DNA of 37,215 nt from Promethearchaeota archaeon (GTDB lineage: Archaea > Asgardarchaeota > Hermodarchaeia > Hermodarchaeales > Hermodarchaeaceae). The notes under the pieces were generated by a model. That model saw only the letters and a program-made list of their open reading frames with translations, made no database searches and was not told where the DNA came from. This document shows, one piece after another, positions 8,851 through 15,005 of this stretch (positions within the stretch are counted from its first letter, which is position 1; every line of letters begins with the position of its first letter). The position numbers were made by a program, and so were the translations under genes. The stretch is from positions 1 to 37,215 of the forward strand of contig JBHLPR010000020.1 in NCBI GenBank assembly GCA_048939245.1, given 5' to 3'.

Positions 8851-10704
8851 TTAGACTTCAAAAGCTTCCAATTGCTCTTGTACTTGGGCAACGATTTGCC
8901 CTGTTCGTAGGATTTGCCAAAGTTGGTCTATGGCTTTGTGTAGTAAAAAGTCCTGGGTTAACCGGTCAACAGGTTTTGCTTCATGTTTTAAGTGTCTGGG
9001 TAGGTTCTTATGAATCACATCATACGCGATTTGGCAGCCTTTTCCTAGCGCTAGGGTCTTGTTTAATCGTCGAATGTCTATTCCCTGAATTGCGCAAAGA
9101 TATTCAATCGCAATGATATGTTCTACGTTGTTTAGGATTTCTTGGGCATGGCGTGCAGCGATTGTTCCCATACTCACATGATCTTCCTGATTAGCCGCTG
9201 TGGGTATCGATTGGATACTGGCAGGGGTTGCCAAGGTTTTACACTCCGCTGTTAGTGCCGCAGCCGTCAGTTGGGCGAGTCCAAGTCCAAAATATACCCC
9301 TTGATCTTCGAGTTTAGGATGAATCAGTAGCAAGGGGAGACCGTTGTTCAGTTTATCATCGATTAGGCGAGCGATGCGGCGTTCGGCAATGCTTCCAAGG
9401 CTTGTTAAGGCGATTCCGAGTAAATCCATGACAACCGCGATAGGTTGACCATGAAAGTTTCCACCTGAAAGGAAAATATTTGAGCTGGGGAATATTAGTG
9501 GATTATCGGTAGCAGAATTTATCTCAATTGTCACAATTTTTTCAGCATATTGTATCGCATCACGAGCGGCCCCAAAGACTTGGGGTGTACAGCGGATGGA
9601 GTAAGCATCTTGTACGCGTCGCGTTTTATGAGCGGCATCGATGGCCGCTTCAAACGTTTCAGGGGAAATCTTTAGTTGTTCAAGATGTTTTCGAATCTGA
9701 TTACGTTTGCGTTGTAGATGGCTAACAGAATCTGGGGGTTCAATTGGAATTTGGTTATCAATGGCGATTACTGTATGGATTGCTTGCTGTAGAATTGATT
9801 TCAGTGCTTCATGCTCTTCCTCTGAATCAACACCAAACGATTCATGGAATTTTTTCATGGCAATCTGAGCTTGCTTAGCCCGTTCAGCTGAGGTTTGGAC
9901 TTGAGAGCTTTCCGATAGGACTGCAAAGAGATTTCGTGCAGATTGCAATTGCCCTGGATGTGGGCGAACTTGATGGATACGCGAGTCAAAGGCATCGAGG
10001 ACAGCCTCCAAAGCTTCCATCGAGAGCGCAGCGGCGATTTCTGCTGATGCTACAAGTGTTTGTGCATCAGCTGTGGTGAGAGCCGCAATGGCGGTCATGA
10101 TTTGTGTGCCATTAATGAGGGCTATCCCTTCTTTGGGTCCAAGTTCAATCGGTTTGAGTCCTGCTTGTTTGAGAGCTTGAGCGCCGGTGAGAATTGTACC
10201 CTTATACTCAGCTTCCCCTTCCCCAATTAACACAAGCACCATATGAGCTAGTGGTGCAAGATCACCGCTCGCGCCTACGGAGCCTTTTTCGGGAATGATT
10301 GGGTGGACTTCGTGATTTAGAAGGTCAATGAGGAGTTGCAGTGTTGAAATACGGATTCCAGAGTTGCCCTTCGCGAGCGTATTTGCTCGAAGGAGCATCG
10401 CAGCACGGACTACTTCTTTGGGTAAGGGGTTTCCAACACCAGCGGCGTGACTGATGATTAGGTTTCTTTGTAAGGTCAGAGCTTTATGTTCAGAGATTAT
10501 AACTTCGCTAAACGGTCCAAACCCAGTAGTGACTCCATAGATGATTTCTCCTGAATCAATCAGTTTGTTAATGAAATTTGTCGCGTTTTGGACCTTCTTT
10601 TTAGCTTTGGGAGATAATTTCACTTTGGTTCCATTTCGGGCAACAGATACGATATCATCAATTGTGAGGGTTTCACCATCAATTACTACTTGAGGTTCAC
10701 TCAT
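8851..10704 (-). CDS. hutH: Histidine ammonia-lyase with ~90-aa internal insertion
   Basis: YGVTTGFG; LIISHAAG (HAL-type SH); GSVGASGDLAPL (MIO tripeptide ASG); QDAYSIRC; GGNFHG; QEDHVSMG. GGTGA RBS precedes ATG 10704 (ORF track uses GTG 10713). Confidence 0.95.
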   Translation of the reverse strand: MSEPQVVIDGETLTIDDIVSVARNGTKVKLSPKAKKKVQNATNFINKLIDSGEIIYGVTTGFGPFSEVIISEHKALTLQRNLIISHAAGVGNPLPKEVVRAAMLLRANTLAKGNSGIRISTLQLLIDLLNHEVHPIIPEKGSVGASGDLAPLAHMVLVLIGEGEAEYKGTILTGAQALKQAGLKPIELGPKEGIALINGTQIMTAIAALTTADAQTLVASAEIAAALSMEALEAVLDAFDSRIHQVRPHPGQLQSARNLFAVLSESSQVQTSAERAKQAQIAMKKFHESFGVDSEEEHEALKSILQQAIHTVIAIDNQIPIEPPDSVSHLQRKRNQIRKHLEQLKISPETFEAAIDAAHKTRRVQDAYSIRCTPQVFGAARDAIQYAEKIVTIEINSATDNPLIFPSSNIFLSGGNFHGQPIAVVMDLLGIALTSLGSIAERRIARLIDDKLNNGLPLLLIHPKLEDQGVYFGLGLAQLTAAALTAECKTLATPASIQSIPTAANQEDHVSMGTIAARHAQEILNNVEHIIAIEYLCAIQGIDIRRLNKTLALGKGCQIAYDVIHKNLPRHLKHEAKPVDRLTQDFLLHKAIDQLWQILRTGQIVAQVQEQLEAFEV

Positions 10705-10825
10705 TGGTTTCACCAGCGCGAATCCTCTTTGCCTATCACTTCAAGGCTAAAAAAAGATTCATTTGTGCAGCGTAATGCCATTTCCTTTATATGAGTGCAT
10801 GCTTGAATTAATGGAGCTCAAAAAG

Positions 10826-12403
10826 CTAATTCTTTTGATAGAGAGTGATAGCGATTTGGCTTATCCCGCCCCACTTAGTTTCTTTCCCCGTTGGATAATA
10901 TGTTTCGATTTTTATTGAGTCGTCACTTAGAATGAGTTCGAGTTCCTCAAGCATCCGCAGTTGTTCAGCAACATCCACTGCGCGATAAATGAGTTTCCCA
11001 CGTGCCCGAATGGTAACGGAGCCTTTCCGTTTAATTTGATGCTGGCATGCTCGCACATATTCTACCGTTCTCTTTTTTCCAACATAGACAATATCTTCAA
11101 TCCAGTCTTTTTCAGCCGTAGGAACAGATTCATGGGAGGGAGCAAGTTGAGTAGTGAATTGTGGTGCTTCTTTGGTAGTTCGTGTGATGGTTGAAAATCC
11201 TAAGAGGGGGGGAGTAGGAGTTTCTGTGTCTGAGAATGGAGCCATCTCTTCTGCTTGTTGATCGAGAATTGGAAAAGTTGATGGAGGAGCTTTCGCTTGG
11301 TATGAGTCTAGCTTGGCAATCTCTTCTTCCAGCATCTTCATGGTAAACCGTTGTTTCGGTTTCCAACTTACTGTTCGGTTAAGTAGGTCATTGATGAGTT
11401 TTGGATTTTTTGTATAAATACCCGCCTCGTCTTTTGAAAACAAACTGTCCGTTGTGAGATTTTGCGAGGAGATAAGTGCAGCTTCACCGTCAACGATAAT
11501 ACAATTGGCATGCAGATTGGGACAGGCATGAATCACCACGCGATCATATAAGAACATTTCAATGGCTTCTGGATCCGCTTGGCCTTTCAGCCAATGTTGC
11601 CAACTTACGGAGGTAATCACTTTAACTTGAATGTCTCGCGGGATTGTCTTTAGAATGTATTCAGCAACAGCCATCGAAATAGTGGGAGATACCAGAATGA
11701 TGGATTCCTTCGCTGAGGCAAGAAGATCCTCCAATAAATTGTTCAACCCATTTAAAGTATTTACAAAAACAGTCTTCGTTTTTTGCGGTAATTCAGATGA
11801 AAGAGAATATATCTGGTTAGCTGTCGGATATTCAGCTGAACCTTCATAGAATGCGGCGATATATTGTTGCACTTCCTTTACAAGAGAAGGATCAGAGGCT
11901 ATGAGACCTAATTCGTGAGCGTTTCGGGATTCCTTGGACGAAATATCTGCTGAACCTACAGACACCCTTTCTTCCGTTGCAATTATTTTGAAATGGATAC
12001 GTGGCCTGTGGATAACTTCGACAGCCCGATTCAACGGTTGGCTCATTTGTTGAAGAAGGTCGGAATTGGTTTTATTAGCAACAATTGTTCGCAGAATTAT
12101 TGAGTTATCCGTTGTATCAAGCAGTGTCCGAAATTTCGACTCTGTGAGGCGAGGAAATCCTAACCAAACGAATATTTCAGCAGACTGGATTAAGTATGAA
12201 TATTCCGATTCATAATTTGGGTCGCCCAAGTAAAGAGGGTCTTTGATGTGTTTCTCATCAGCGACTGAAAGTAAATCTATGATAATGGGAAAGATTTTCG
12301 TCTGAATCTTGTGATGAAACTCCCATATGAACATCAAGATTACTGAGCCTATGATAAGAATAATGGCTAACGCAGGAAACATTTCCGAACCTAGCTCGCC
12401 CAT
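10826..12403 (-). CDS. Membrane-anchored protein: N-terminal TM + two degenerate phospholipase D-like domains + Pro/Thr linker + C-terminal Alba domain
   Basis: TM at aa ~9-27. HFKIIATEERVSVGSAD and HANCIIVDGEAALISSQNLT are PLD-type motifs. The last 89 aa (VYVGKK...Y...TIRARGKLIYRAVDVAE...ISQIAITL) are Alba-like. Confidence 0.82.
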   Translation of the reverse strand: MGELGSEMFPALAIILIIGSVILMFIWEFHHKIQTKIFPIIIDLLSVADEKHIKDPLYLGDPNYESEYSYLIQSAEIFVWLGFPRLTESKFRTLLDTTDNSIILRTIVANKTNSDLLQQMSQPLNRAVEVIHRPRIHFKIIATEERVSVGSADISSKESRNAHELGLIASDPSLVKEVQQYIAAFYEGSAEYPTANQIYSLSSELPQKTKTVFVNTLNGLNNLLEDLLASAKESIILVSPTISMAVAEYILKTIPRDIQVKVITSVSWQHWLKGQADPEAIEMFLYDRVVIHACPNLHANCIIVDGEAALISSQNLTTDSLFSKDEAGIYTKNPKLINDLLNRTVSWKPKQRFTMKMLEEEIAKLDSYQAKAPPSTFPILDQQAEEMAPFSDTETPTPPLLGFSTITRTTKEAPQFTTQLAPSHESVPTAEKDWIEDIVYVGKKRTVEYVRACQHQIKRKGSVTIRARGKLIYRAVDVAEQLRMLEELELILSDDSIKIETYYPTGKETKWGGISQIAITLYQKN

Positions 12404-12562
12404 TTGCTGGAAATTCGTCCACCCTTAGGCGATATCTTCTTATTTTATCTTTTGGCAGTAAATGCAGATTGTTGTATGTTTAATAGATTGTTATAAATTT
12501 CGAAGGGAAGTCTAGTCAAATCCTGCGAAAAGCCACTTCTTTATGATTTTCTTATTGAATAT

Positions 12563-14212
12563 TTATGACTCCTGTCGAAGATAGGAATGAGAGGACCAAC
12601 TAAGGAGAATAAGTACAAGGCATATTGTATAGGGTGCTACGAGTATTGAGCTCAAGATCATAAGGACAACACCCCCAGGAAGAAATCCCAGTTGAAAAAT
12701 AAGTACGGGAATAATTGCTACCCACGAAATGACAGGGAAGGTGATCATAAGAGCGACTGGTGTTTCGTTCTTAGCGCGTGACGAGTAGGGATAACGACTT
12801 CCTAATCCCACACCAATAGCTGTAGCGATTAATACAGCATGGGGTAGTATTGCGAATGCTATTGCCAGCAAGTAGGGGTTTCCGAGAAGAGTGGCAAAAT
12901 AAATTGCGAAGGGAATTGCCAGACAGATGGGTGTGACGAGAAATTCAGAGTACTTGATAAAAGTGAGTTTTAACGGTGCGACTGGTGACAGACGAACAAG
13001 ATAGATACTGCCATACTCTCCCTGAAAAGGATCAGCTGAAGATATTGCAAGCAGGGGTATTATTACAACAAGTAGGACAGCATACAATGTTTCAATAGCT
13101 GGTACCAAATCGAATGGAATCGGAAGCGGAGAACCTAACAAGGGAAATATCAGAATAAATATGAATGCAAACACAAAATTCGAGATCAATCCGATTAGAT
13201 AGAAGATTTTTCCGGGTTTGCGTATTCCCGTCACAAAATCTTTCTTAAACAGAGCTCGAAGGGGAGTTGTTGTAGCAGAGAAGATGATTGGGAGCCGACT
13301 TAGCGCCCCAAGTGTTGTTCCTCTTTGTCGGGTGACTGCAGCAAGTTCCTCGTAGAGATCAATGGTTATCTTACTTGTAAGCCAGCGAGTGAGACTCAAG
13401 ATAACCAAATAGGCAACAACTAACCCAAAGAGTACCCAAGGAAGTGCAGGAAAATAGAGATAGGTAAAACTTCCCTCTGATCCTAATGAGGCCCCACTGA
13501 ATATTATGGCTACAAGCATGTATGCAAGATTGTACAAAGGTGAGGGAAGAAGACCTCCATTGACCAACCACATGGGACTCAACACCAAGAGAACCCCGAT
13601 TATCAATCCAAAATAGAAGAAGACACGAAAGAGAAGTTGCTTGGGGCGTGGTTGTGACATTAATTTGCGTATGGCATAAAGCCCTTGAGTAGCAATCGAT
13701 CCAATTTCAGCAAGGAGAAAGGCAATAATTACAAAGAGGGCAAACATTTCCAGAGTTAATCCGAAATTAACTCCAAAGTACCATAAGATTGGTTGAAAGG
13801 CAACAATGATGTACAAAAAGATCAAGAGCCGTCGTGAGATAGAACGAATGTATTTTGCTGAGTAGAAGACGTGGGCTTGAATGGGTGCCGGAAGTAAGTA
13901 ATCAGCATCAGCTTGTTCAGATTGAGAACTTAGTGGAACACCCATAACAGCTTTGACAATTTGTTGGGCAATGATTAGAGAGAGTACTGCATAAACGATC
14001 CAAATCGTATTGCTGCCAATGAGGCCACTATCGATTGTAAGCCAATAGAGAGCGCCTCGTAATGGAACAGGGAATACAAAGATGAGCGACCAGAGGAACC
14101 ATATCACAAGAATAACGATCGCCATGGAGAGAATCTGTAACGTGATGAAGGTAGGTTGGCGAATGGATTTCCGAAGATAGTTCCAGGCTCGTCTGAGCTC
14201 CCACCGTGCCAC
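12563..14212 (-). CDS. ABC transporter permease (ABC-2/EcsB-like exporter, internally duplicated)
   Basis: About 12-14 TMs, two related halves (DYLLPAPI...FYSAKY / YLVRLSPV...TFIKY), directly downstream of the ABC ATPase. Confidence 0.8.
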   Translation of the reverse strand: MARWELRRAWNYLRKSIRQPTFITLQILSMAIVILVIWFLWSLIFVFPVPLRGALYWLTIDSGLIGSNTIWIVYAVLSLIIAQQIVKAVMGVPLSSQSEQADADYLLPAPIQAHVFYSAKYIRSISRRLLIFLYIIVAFQPILWYFGVNFGLTLEMFALFVIIAFLLAEIGSIATQGLYAIRKLMSQPRPKQLLFRVFFYFGLIIGVLLVLSPMWLVNGGLLPSPLYNLAYMLVAIIFSGASLGSEGSFTYLYFPALPWVLFGLVVAYLVILSLTRWLTSKITIDLYEELAAVTRQRGTTLGALSRLPIIFSATTTPLRALFKKDFVTGIRKPGKIFYLIGLISNFVFAFIFILIFPLLGSPLPIPFDLVPAIETLYAVLLVVIIPLLAISSADPFQGEYGSIYLVRLSPVAPLKLTFIKYSEFLVTPICLAIPFAIYFATLLGNPYLLAIAFAILPHAVLIATAIGVGLGSRYPYSSRAKNETPVALMITFPVISWVAIIPVLIFQLGFLPGGVVLMILSSILVAPYTICLVLILLSWSSHSYLRQES

Positions 14213-14222
14213 GGTGACCGTA

Positions 14223-15005
14223 CTAACCGCGTCCAGTGTTCCTACCTCCCCGTAATGTCCGGATATAATAGTCCTCTAAAGCAGTTCCACCTCCAACTTG
14301 GCGACGTAACTCTTCTACAGTTCCGGAAGCAACCTTCACACCTTTTGAGATAATGGTAAATTCATCACTTACTTCTTCAGCGACACTTAGATTATGAGTA
14401 GAGAGTAAAATGGTACTTCCGTTTTGAGCTAGTTCTCGGATTATCTTCTTGAGTACGTACCCGCCTTCCGGATCTAGTCCATATAGGGGTTCATCCATTA
14501 ACATGACCCGAGGATTACGGATTAGTAACCCACACAATATTGCCCGTTGAAGCATTCCACGAGAGAGTTCTCCAAGATATTTGTTTAAGAACCCATGGAT
14601 TTCAAAGCGGTTGATATATTCTAATCGGCGACGGTTGAATTCTGGTTCTGGAATCTGGTATAAACTTCCGATAAAGGAGAGGAATTCGTGCACTCTGAGG
14701 GTCTCATAGGCTGTGGGAGCATCTGGAAGAAACCCAAGATTCGTTTTTGCCCGCCAGGATTCTCTTAGCATATCGTAGCCCATTACGAAAATGCCTCCTT
14801 GGTTTGGACGACTGAGCCCTCCAATAAGACGAAGGGTAGTGGTTTTCCCAGCCCCGTTCGGACCAACAAGCGCGTGGACAATTCCTTGTCGTACTTGGAG
14901 ATTAAAGCGATTAACCGCCAAAACCCCAGGCGGGAAAATCTTCGTGAGCCGGATAGTTTCTAAAGCCAGGACTTGTTCGTTCGCTTTAATTGCCGTATCT
15001 GACAT
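14223..15005 (-). CDS. ABC transporter ATP-binding protein
   Basis: Walker A GPNGAGKTT, signature LSRGM, Walker B LMDEP, STH switch. Confidence 0.95.
   Translation of the reverse strand: MSDTAIKANEQVLALETIRLTKIFPPGVLAVNRFNLQVRQGIVHALVGPNGAGKTTTLRLIGGLSRPNQGGIFVMGYDMLRESWRAKTNLGFLPDAPTAYETLRVHEFLSFIGSLYQIPEPEFNRRRLEYINRFEIHGFLNKYLGELSRGMLQRAILCGLLIRNPRVMLMDEPLYGLDPEGGYVLKKIIRELAQNGSTILLSTHNLSVAEEVSDEFTIISKGVKVASGTVEELRRQVGGGTALEDYYIRTLRGGRNTGRG

Follow-up and report, generated by a model that had tools for sequence, protein, structure and literature searches.

A membrane-anchored protein joining a degenerate PLD module to an Alba domain in one genus of Asgard archaea

What could an Alba domain be doing at the end of a membrane protein, behind a module of the PLD fold? 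Alba is one of the two most widespread archaeal chromatin- and RNA-binding proteins and is normally free and soluble. The question is raised by a gene in a stretch of 37,215 nucleotides (hereafter the window; positions 1 to 37,215 of contig JBHLPR010000020.1, GenBank assembly GCA_048939245.1) from a Promethearchaeota archaeon of the Hermodarchaeaceae. This PLD-Alba gene (10826..12403, minus strand) is an uninterrupted open reading frame (ORF) for a protein of 525 aa, P0001. The analysis confirms that a membrane anchor, a degenerate PLD module of nuclease type and an Alba domain are joined here in one real, conserved protein. About an even chance is given to the reading that this protein descends from an HKD nuclease and, without catalysis, tethers nucleic acid and/or Alba to the cytoplasmic face of the membrane.

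The first-pass annotation, made from the sequence without database searches, described an N-terminal transmembrane (TM) helix, two PLD-like domains, a linker and an intact Alba domain, and all of these parts are confirmed by Pfam, NCBIfam, hydropathy and an AlphaFold2 (AF2) model. The Pfam family PLDc_2 (PF13091) matches P0001 in two stretches (8.4e-19, 68 bits against a cut-off of 27). Alba (PF01918) matches residues 438-483 (1.7e-10, 41 bits against a cut-off of 25), and the NCBIfam AlbA models span residues 436-523. A profile of 24 orthologues matches solved Alba proteins from end to end (AF1956, E 6e-16), in agreement with the proposed identity of the C-terminus; the span first given for it, 10829-11095, was right, and the domain is now placed at 10829-11104. 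Residues 9-28 form the sole strongly hydrophobic segment (Kyte-Doolittle peak 2.78). The AF2 model has a mean per-residue confidence (pLDDT) of 76.8, exceeding 80 in most 10-residue blocks of the PLD lobes, and consists of helix 9-28, a hydrophobic helix at 30-45, a confident two-lobed alpha/beta module at 55-370, a disordered stretch at 374-435 (pLDDT ~30) and the Alba fold at 438-523. In this model, helix 30-45 may hold the PLD module near the membrane. The linker is as rich in Pro, Thr and Glu as first described (11 Thr, 10 Pro and 6 Glu; net charge -6), and its length is 61 aa instead of the estimated ~65 aa, with a range of 60-85 aa among orthologues. PHROGs matches of the protein are weak and concern entries of unknown function, and Rfam and tRNA scans of the window returned no match.

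A search of 5.8 billion proteins yielded 23 full-length orthologues (502-559 aa, 44-89% identity), all containing PLDc_2 and Alba, which together with P0001 make up the family alignment (n=24). They originate from independent JGI, ENA, NCBI and Logan assemblies and stand in public databases under automatic names. The records are labelled 'Promethearchaeota archaeon', and one in the 90% cluster of P0001 itself 'Candidatus Thorarchaeota archaeon'. An assembly or frameshift artefact, named at the outset as a risk, is ruled out by these 23 independent full-length proteins and by unbroken frames in six genomes of the genus. Six orthologues seemingly lack the TM helix because their start codon was called too far downstream: at the one locus inspected, the helix is encoded in frame just upstream, and P0018 and P0020, which are close relatives, carry the helix.

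Selection on the gene was estimated against the 89%-identical orthologue, for which synonymous divergence is unsaturated (dS 0.27). The ratio of nonsynonymous to synonymous substitution rates (dN/dS) is 0.19 for the whole gene, 0.09 for PLD lobe 1, 0.20 for lobe 2, 0.59 for the linker and 0.05 for the Alba domain, the tightest constraint of all parts; the neighbouring gene, encoding an aromatic amino-acid lyase of the HAL type, has a value of 0.17. Among 60%-identical orthologues dS is saturated (1.5-3), and these comparisons served only for the relative dN per domain. Mean pairwise identity among the 24 proteins is 0.69 in the TM helix, 0.46 in lobe 1, 0.70 in lobe 2, 0.35 in the linker and 0.72 in the Alba domain, and 91 columns are invariant at identities down to 44%. 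That the gene is a decaying, functionless relic of a mobile-element nuclease gene is extremely improbable in view of this constraint, which is on par with that on the neighbouring metabolic gene. Degenerate catalytic motifs, together with pseudogene remnants in two members of the genus and clean absence in three at the same locus, would be expected of such a relic, but all nine full-length copies from the window, the assemblies and the genus genomes (six different sequences) are uninterrupted ORFs. All orthologues keep a PPLLGF motif within the linker, despite the fast evolution and disorder of the surrounding residues; the motif follows an acidic patch and looks like a short linear interaction motif.

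In the PLD superfamily, one histidine serves as the nucleophile and the other as the general acid. The two motifs of P0001 depart from the canonical form exactly as first read, with HFKIIATE...GSAD in motif 1 and HANCIIVD...SSQN in motif 2, and no family member (0/24) has two canonical HxKx4D motifs. The complete set of a catalytically competent PLD, two HxKx4D...G(S/T)xN motifs with two His and two Lys, is therefore not found. In motif 2, Lys is replaced by Asn in 24/24 proteins, with Asp and SSxN retained, and His is kept in 14, the other ten having Glu, Tyr, Asn, Cys or Met in its place. Motif 1 retains His in 21/24, Lys in 19/24 and Asp/Glu in 17/24. Two proteins, P0006 and P0010, have no His in either motif and intact ORFs. 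Because the histidine roles are lost in part of the family, the shared function of its members is not the canonical PLD reaction, and canonical nuclease activity of the family appears unlikely from these motifs. That lobe 2 is so constrained, its Asn being invariant, speaks for a conserved role in binding.

These counts weaken the earlier suggestion of an Alba-targeted nuclease. The alternative in question is a membrane-bound enzyme that is still active, a nuclease or phosphodiesterase guided to RNA or DNA by its Alba domain; such a domesticated or defensive effector, degrading nucleic acid at the membrane and comparable to PLD3/PLD4, is doubtful. In its favour, 13 of the 24 proteins, P0001 included, keep both the His-x-Lys of motif 1 and the His of motif 2, but the motif 2 Lys is Asn in every member, and the proteins without motif 2 His (10), without motif 1 His (3) or without both (2) are all intact and constrained.

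The two-lobed fold itself is well supported, as residues 52-369 match many solved two-lobed PLDs with Z-scores of 25-29. The best structural match is vaccinia F13 (Z 29.2, root-mean-square deviation (rmsd) 2.8 Å over 288 residues), next to the bacterial PLD 7e0m (Z 28.9), PLD3/PLD4 (Z ~28, rmsd ~3 Å over ~300 residues), PssA (Z 27.5, a fold-level likeness only) and Streptomyces PLD (Z ~26). Because these scores are effectively tied, the fold does not tell a nucleic-acid ligand from a lipid ligand. PLD3 and PLD4 are mammalian single-pass 5' exonucleases, and the match to them speaks for an active nuclease. As in P0001, their one TM helix at the N-terminus precedes a compact PLD module of two lobes; unlike P0001, they have both HKD motifs intact, lie on the lumenal side and lack an Alba domain, and at 10-13% identity the likeness is one of arrangement and fold, not of family. 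F13 has a two-lobed PLD fold, associates with membranes and does not act by classical catalysis; one of its HKD motifs is degenerate. It differs from P0001 in being lipidated instead of carrying a TM helix and in lacking a nucleic-acid-binding domain, and shares 14% identity with it.

Among named families, DrmC and DpdK score best for the PLD part (PADLOC DrmC 4.7e-16; NCBIfam DrmC 1.8e-11; DpdK 1.3e-3). A defence nuclease as the best PADLOC and NCBIfam match again favours an active enzyme, but the scores are far under the cut-offs (DrmC 44 against 133 bits, DpdK 18 against 100 bits), which places P0001 outside DISARM DrmC and DpdK, and each of these has just one PLD domain, in which the HKD motif is intact. 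Partner genes of DISARM or Dpd are absent from the surroundings of the PLD-Alba gene, which stands alone in a core-genome neighbourhood of ABC transporter, P-type ATPase, HAL and hut genes. The protein also falls outside the cardiolipin and phosphatidylserine synthases (bac_cardiolipin 13 against 290 bits). Pfam gives no TrmB match in P0001, whose N-terminus is the TM helix, and ESM Atlas feature and fold searches returned generic PLD clusters only.

It is quite unlikely that the module is directed at lipids, that is, that it binds or senses a phospholipid head group in the manner of F13, phosphatidylserine synthase or cardiolipin synthase and controls the availability of the Alba domain or of free Alba bound to it, as a one-component link from the state of the membrane to RNA/DNA binding. 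The combination of a TM helix with two PLD lobes recalls bacterial cardiolipin synthases, but the sequence affinity is to nuclease-type PLDc_2 and DrmC. Membrane-associated F13 and PssA are among the top fold matches, yet the Z-scores of the PLD classes lie within ~1-2 units of each other. The ~25 residues between TM helix and PLD module, themselves a hydrophobic helix, would suit work at the membrane surface, and the conserved non-catalytic pocket of lobe 2 would suit ligand binding; against this, the soluble relatives have no membrane anchor. Elsewhere in the genome, four further PLD-family genes are present (C38:19642-20610, C9:63622-64041, C86:24922-25278 and C26:64774-64935), one of which encodes a 470-aa two-PLD protein.

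The soluble relatives bear on where the protein came from. An exhaustive HMMER search of 1.84 billion cluster representatives gave only 15 proteins at E <= 1e-10, and the nearest matches beyond the family itself are rare soluble proteins of archaea that have two PLD lobes and keep their HKD motifs intact, a point in favour of an active nuclease. Two of them have the same domain order: P0026 (504 aa) is a PLD-PLD-Alba protein, and P0031 (563 aa) has a TrmB-type helix-turn-helix domain, weakly matched, in front of PLD-PLD-Alba. Both resemble P0001 in their two PLD lobes, charged linker and C-terminal Alba domain, and HMMER aligns each with it as a single span running from lobe 1 through the Alba domain (E 1e-34 and 4e-25, respectively; 25-29% identity). 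They differ in having no membrane anchor and both HKD motifs intact, and are uncharacterised metagenomic singletons. The statement that no protein of this architecture is described thus holds for the literature searched, which contains no description of a PLD-Alba fusion, but has to be narrowed in view of these soluble proteins. P0027, P0028 and P0033 are soluble PLD relatives with a different C-terminal domain, and further soluble relatives come from metagenome-assembled genomes of Bathyarchaeota and Nanoarchaeota.

The gene for P0031 (L009:1-13210) is surrounded by genes for a TraG/VirD4-like protein, an N6/N4 methylase, HerA (DUF87), NurA and DpdA, which looks like a setting of mobile elements or DNA modification. 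Two of the closest relatives have such DpdA, HerA/NurA, TraG and methylase genes beside them, and this again fits an active nuclease. The gene for P0026 (L008:1-6572) has as neighbours a PAPS-reductase-like gene and genes for two large proteins that match no Pfam family, and a P0027-like copy in another Asgard family adjoins a gene that, judged by eye, looks like a HerA-type ATPase. A word-indexed search for wider relatives of P0031 returned P0031 alone. From these two or three contexts we infer that the membrane protein is a domesticated HKD nuclease of mobile-element or defence type, which already bore a nucleic-acid-binding C-terminal domain. The surroundings of P0031 and P0026 may be a candidate undescribed archaeal DNA-modification or defence island.

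The side of the membrane on which the protein works can be predicted from the residues that flank its helix. Of the 18 orthologues with a full N-terminus, 16 lack Lys and Arg ahead of the TM helix, and all 18 carry 1-4 of them in the 20 residues that follow. Under the positive-inside rule, this distribution predicts an N-out/C-in orientation with the PLD module and the Alba domain in the cytoplasm, as a topology prediction proposed in the first-pass annotation was to establish; the orientation agrees with the soluble, signal-less relatives. An extracellular soluble part, capturing environmental DNA or RNA at the cell surface like anchored competence or nuclease proteins, is very unlikely. A single N-terminal hydrophobic segment would allow it, but a Sec signal or type II anchor would show the opposite pattern to the missing basic n-region and the Lys/Arg behind the helix. 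Several orthologues have a neutral to negative net charge behind the helix, and lobe 2 contains an N-T-S sequon (N215 and T216 invariant, S217 in >=90%), both compatible with an outside location, yet all relatives are soluble proteins without signal sequences and Alba is a cytoplasmic family. The ABC transporter encoded just upstream, a further argument for the cell surface, is retained in genomes without the PLD-Alba gene and hence is not its partner.

The Alba domain shows the order beta-alpha-beta-alpha-beta-beta in the AF2 model (E438-440, H446-460, E462-468, H469-484, E497-502 and E514-523), with a pLDDT of 74-88 in most 10-residue blocks and of 59 at ~501-510. In solved Alba proteins, IGKKP and KARGR are the aligned counterparts of its basic stretches VGKKR and RARGK, and G442, K444, R468 and G469 are invariant in the family, as part of a domain with the basic loop RARG[KR]. 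At 41-43 bits against cut-offs of 88-90 bits, and as the C-terminus of a 525-aa protein, it is not a canonical AlbA equivalog (TIGR00285/NF003088). It shares with archaeal Alba (Sso10b/AF1956) the full domain, the order of secondary structure and the GKK and RARG motifs, and a canonical dimer interface is predicted for it. In contrast, archaeal Alba is a free protein of 90-100 aa, and the fusion has an invariant KWGGIS hairpin that is absent from canonical Alba.

The host genome encodes one canonical Alba of 156 aa (G000:C34:10116-10583, corresponding to L001:1423-1893 on the minus strand), which is 37% identical to the Alba domain of the fusion. Complex prediction for the two Alba domains gave a score of 0.81, with 0.00 for the best control, although this pass may be a recall of solved Alba dimers; the same mark is reached by 58/80 solved complexes and 2/110 mismatched pairs. 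The three runs share >=94% of contacts, the pLDDT of the partner is >=82, and the interface is the canonical one of Alba dimers, formed by helix alpha2 and the beta-sheet (beta3/beta4). The prediction would indicate that the interface is preserved, not that the two proteins bind. The pairing with free Alba proposed in the first-pass annotation is compatible with this complex, which may equally reflect a mere likeness to solved dimers; it would require the cytoplasmic orientation that the Lys/Arg distribution favours. In a tree of the Alba domain (~95 residues), a long stem (2.12) carries the fusion clade, which falls outside the canonical Alba clade of the genus. The tree leaves two origins standing: a duplicated host Alba, or an ancestor that was already PLD-PLD-Alba. 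The host Alba itself has an N-terminal tail of ~60 aa, of low complexity and rich in Lys, Ala, Glu and Pro, which resembles a histone tail. The tail is present in most of the 14 other genomes of the genus, where 11 of the best matches listed start at residue 1-4, some being cut by contig ends. Alba proteins of other Asgard families align only from about residue 60, with no similarity to the tail among the best matches listed.

A search of 300 further Asgard genomes located the PLD-Alba gene in 8/14 other members of its GTDB genus and in 0/4 of the sister genus; these genomes are 72-91% complete. Outside the genus, one soluble paralogue type was the only match among the 300. The conserved gene order is V-ATPase E, P-type ATPase, a small gene, ABC ATPase, a ~550-aa membrane protein (permease), PLD-Alba and a HAL of 617-621 aa. 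In the window, gaps of 159 nt upstream and 112 nt to HAL separate the gene from its neighbours, and the upstream gap is 150-200 nt at orthologous loci; together with A/T-rich TATA-like elements and a T5 run behind the gene, this suggests a monocistronic gene with its own promoter. An operon with the ABC transporter or with HAL is ruled out by these gaps, by the T5 run, by the adjacency of permease and HAL in genomes without the gene and by a slot that, in the sister genus, is empty or filled with an unrelated gene. No conserved partner genes of PLD-Alba were found.

In three genomes of the genus (G060, G110 and G011) the permease abuts HAL with nothing between them. Two more genomes hold remnants and represent gene loss caught in progress: G052 (L026:4667-5005) retains a broken Alba domain as a 65-aa ORF, in which GKK has become RKK and ARG has become ARV before the frame breaks, and in G067 (L028:4898-5008) just the final 37 codons are left. 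Two genomes of the sister genus have an unrelated 269-aa gene in the slot, on the opposite strand (L055:254-1063 (+) in G022), and in a third the slot is empty, so the space between permease and HAL seems to be a recurrent insertion site. In a HAL tree rooted with the sister genus, a carrier of the gene (L006) branches first, the two genomes with remnants pair as sisters within the clade of carriers, and the three empty genomes fall into a group whose branching is not resolved. At least two losses follow from this topology, a provisional count since the tree is built on a single gene. Patchy distribution with frequent loss is typical of defence genes and to that extent favours an active nuclease. 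Because it is confined to one genus and repeatedly lost, PLD-Alba is an accessory gene and not a core link between chromatin and membrane.

For the preferred reading, a non-catalytic tether, we infer the orientation, the loss of catalysis, the dimerisation and the tethered cargo. The N-terminal helix would anchor an accessory, genus-restricted protein whose bulk lies in the cytoplasm. A two-lobed PLD module, derived from soluble archaeal HKD nucleases and without the full catalytic set of His and Lys, would thereby be positioned at the membrane as a probable non-catalytic binder of phosphate, of a nucleic-acid end or of a lipid head group. From it, the flexible acidic linker would carry a constrained Alba domain that keeps its nucleic-acid-binding residues and its dimer interface. 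This domain may dimerise, with itself or with free Alba of the host, and bind RNA or DNA, so that nucleic acid or Alba would be held uncut at the inner face of the membrane. A more specific version, in which the protein pairs with free Alba as a heterodimer and so takes hold of the RNA or chromatin that the cell's Alba coats, and in which a dead PLD module from a nuclease domesticated from a mobile element reads the membrane or a nucleic-acid end, is unlikely.

Several observations weigh against the tether. With both histidines (H137 and H298) and one lysine retained, residual catalysis is possible in the P0001 copy. The conservation of lobe 2 and its invariant Asn in place of Lys indicate a specific function. 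The orientation is a prediction by the positive-inside rule, and acidic residues behind the TM helix make the flanks ambiguous in net charge. The predicted complex is perhaps a recall of solved Alba homo- and heterodimers and does not discriminate between the two kinds. Finally, repeated loss shows that the gene is dispensable, a poor fit with a structural chromosome tether.

If free Alba is indeed captured, the protein would be a simple prokaryotic analogue of eukaryotic membrane-chromatin or membrane-mRNA tethers, and if the module is a pseudo-enzyme, it would provide a clear example of a nuclease turned to such a role. The confinement to one genus, the repeated loss and the absence of conserved partners temper this importance, describing an accessory invention and not general Asgard cell biology. 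The system is tractable, since the domains can be assayed separately and natural variants with and without the histidines offer built-in controls. The positions of all parts are collected in Table 1.

Table 1. Parts of the PLD-Alba gene and its flanks, with positions in the window.
Feature	Position	Strand	Remarks
Whole coding sequence	10826..12403	-	525 aa; start in most orthologues is MFP matching Met8 (12382)
Single N-terminal TM helix, residues 9-28	12320..12379	-	0 K/R before, 1-4 K/R after
Hydrophobic/amphipathic juxtamembrane helix, residues 30-45	12269..12316	-	AF2 model
PLD lobe 1, residues 56-190	11834..12238	-	less conserved lobe; 26.6 bits alone
HKD motif 1, HFKIIATE...GSAD, residues 137-153	11945..11995	-	sequence
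PLD lobe 2, residues 210-350	11354..11776	-	conserved as strongly as the Alba domain
Degenerate HKD motif 2, HANCIIVD...SSQN, residues 298-315	11459..11512	-	sequence
Helix closing the PLD module, residues 351-372	11288..11353	-	AF2 model, helix 355-370
Disordered acidic Pro/Thr/Glu-rich linker, residues 373-433	11105..11287	-	sequence and AF2 model
PPLLGF motif within the linker	11195..11212	-	P398, L401 and F403 invariant in 24/24
Alba domain, residues 434-525	10829..11104	-	GKK and RARG basic motifs, invariant KWGGIS hairpin
Upstream intergenic region, 159 nt	12404..12562	-	A/T-rich TATA-like elements at ~12441-12448 and 12491-12497 (sequence only)
T5 run, one base past the stop codon	10820..10824	-	likely archaeal oligo-T terminator (sequence only)

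Two of the neighbouring loci have features of their own. Upstream, a 549-aa polytopic membrane protein without a Pfam family (12563-14212, minus strand) is encoded 10 nt downstream of the ABC ATPase (14223-15005, minus strand). The pair is kept in the genus and in the sister genus and looks like an uncharacterised ABC exporter. On the other side, the HAL-type aromatic amino-acid lyase (8851-10713, minus strand) has 620 aa, ~100 aa more than the usual HutH, and its Pfam match falls into two stretches. This long form is likewise kept in both genera, and further hut genes (urocanase, FTCD and an imidazolonepropionase-like gene) lie nearby.

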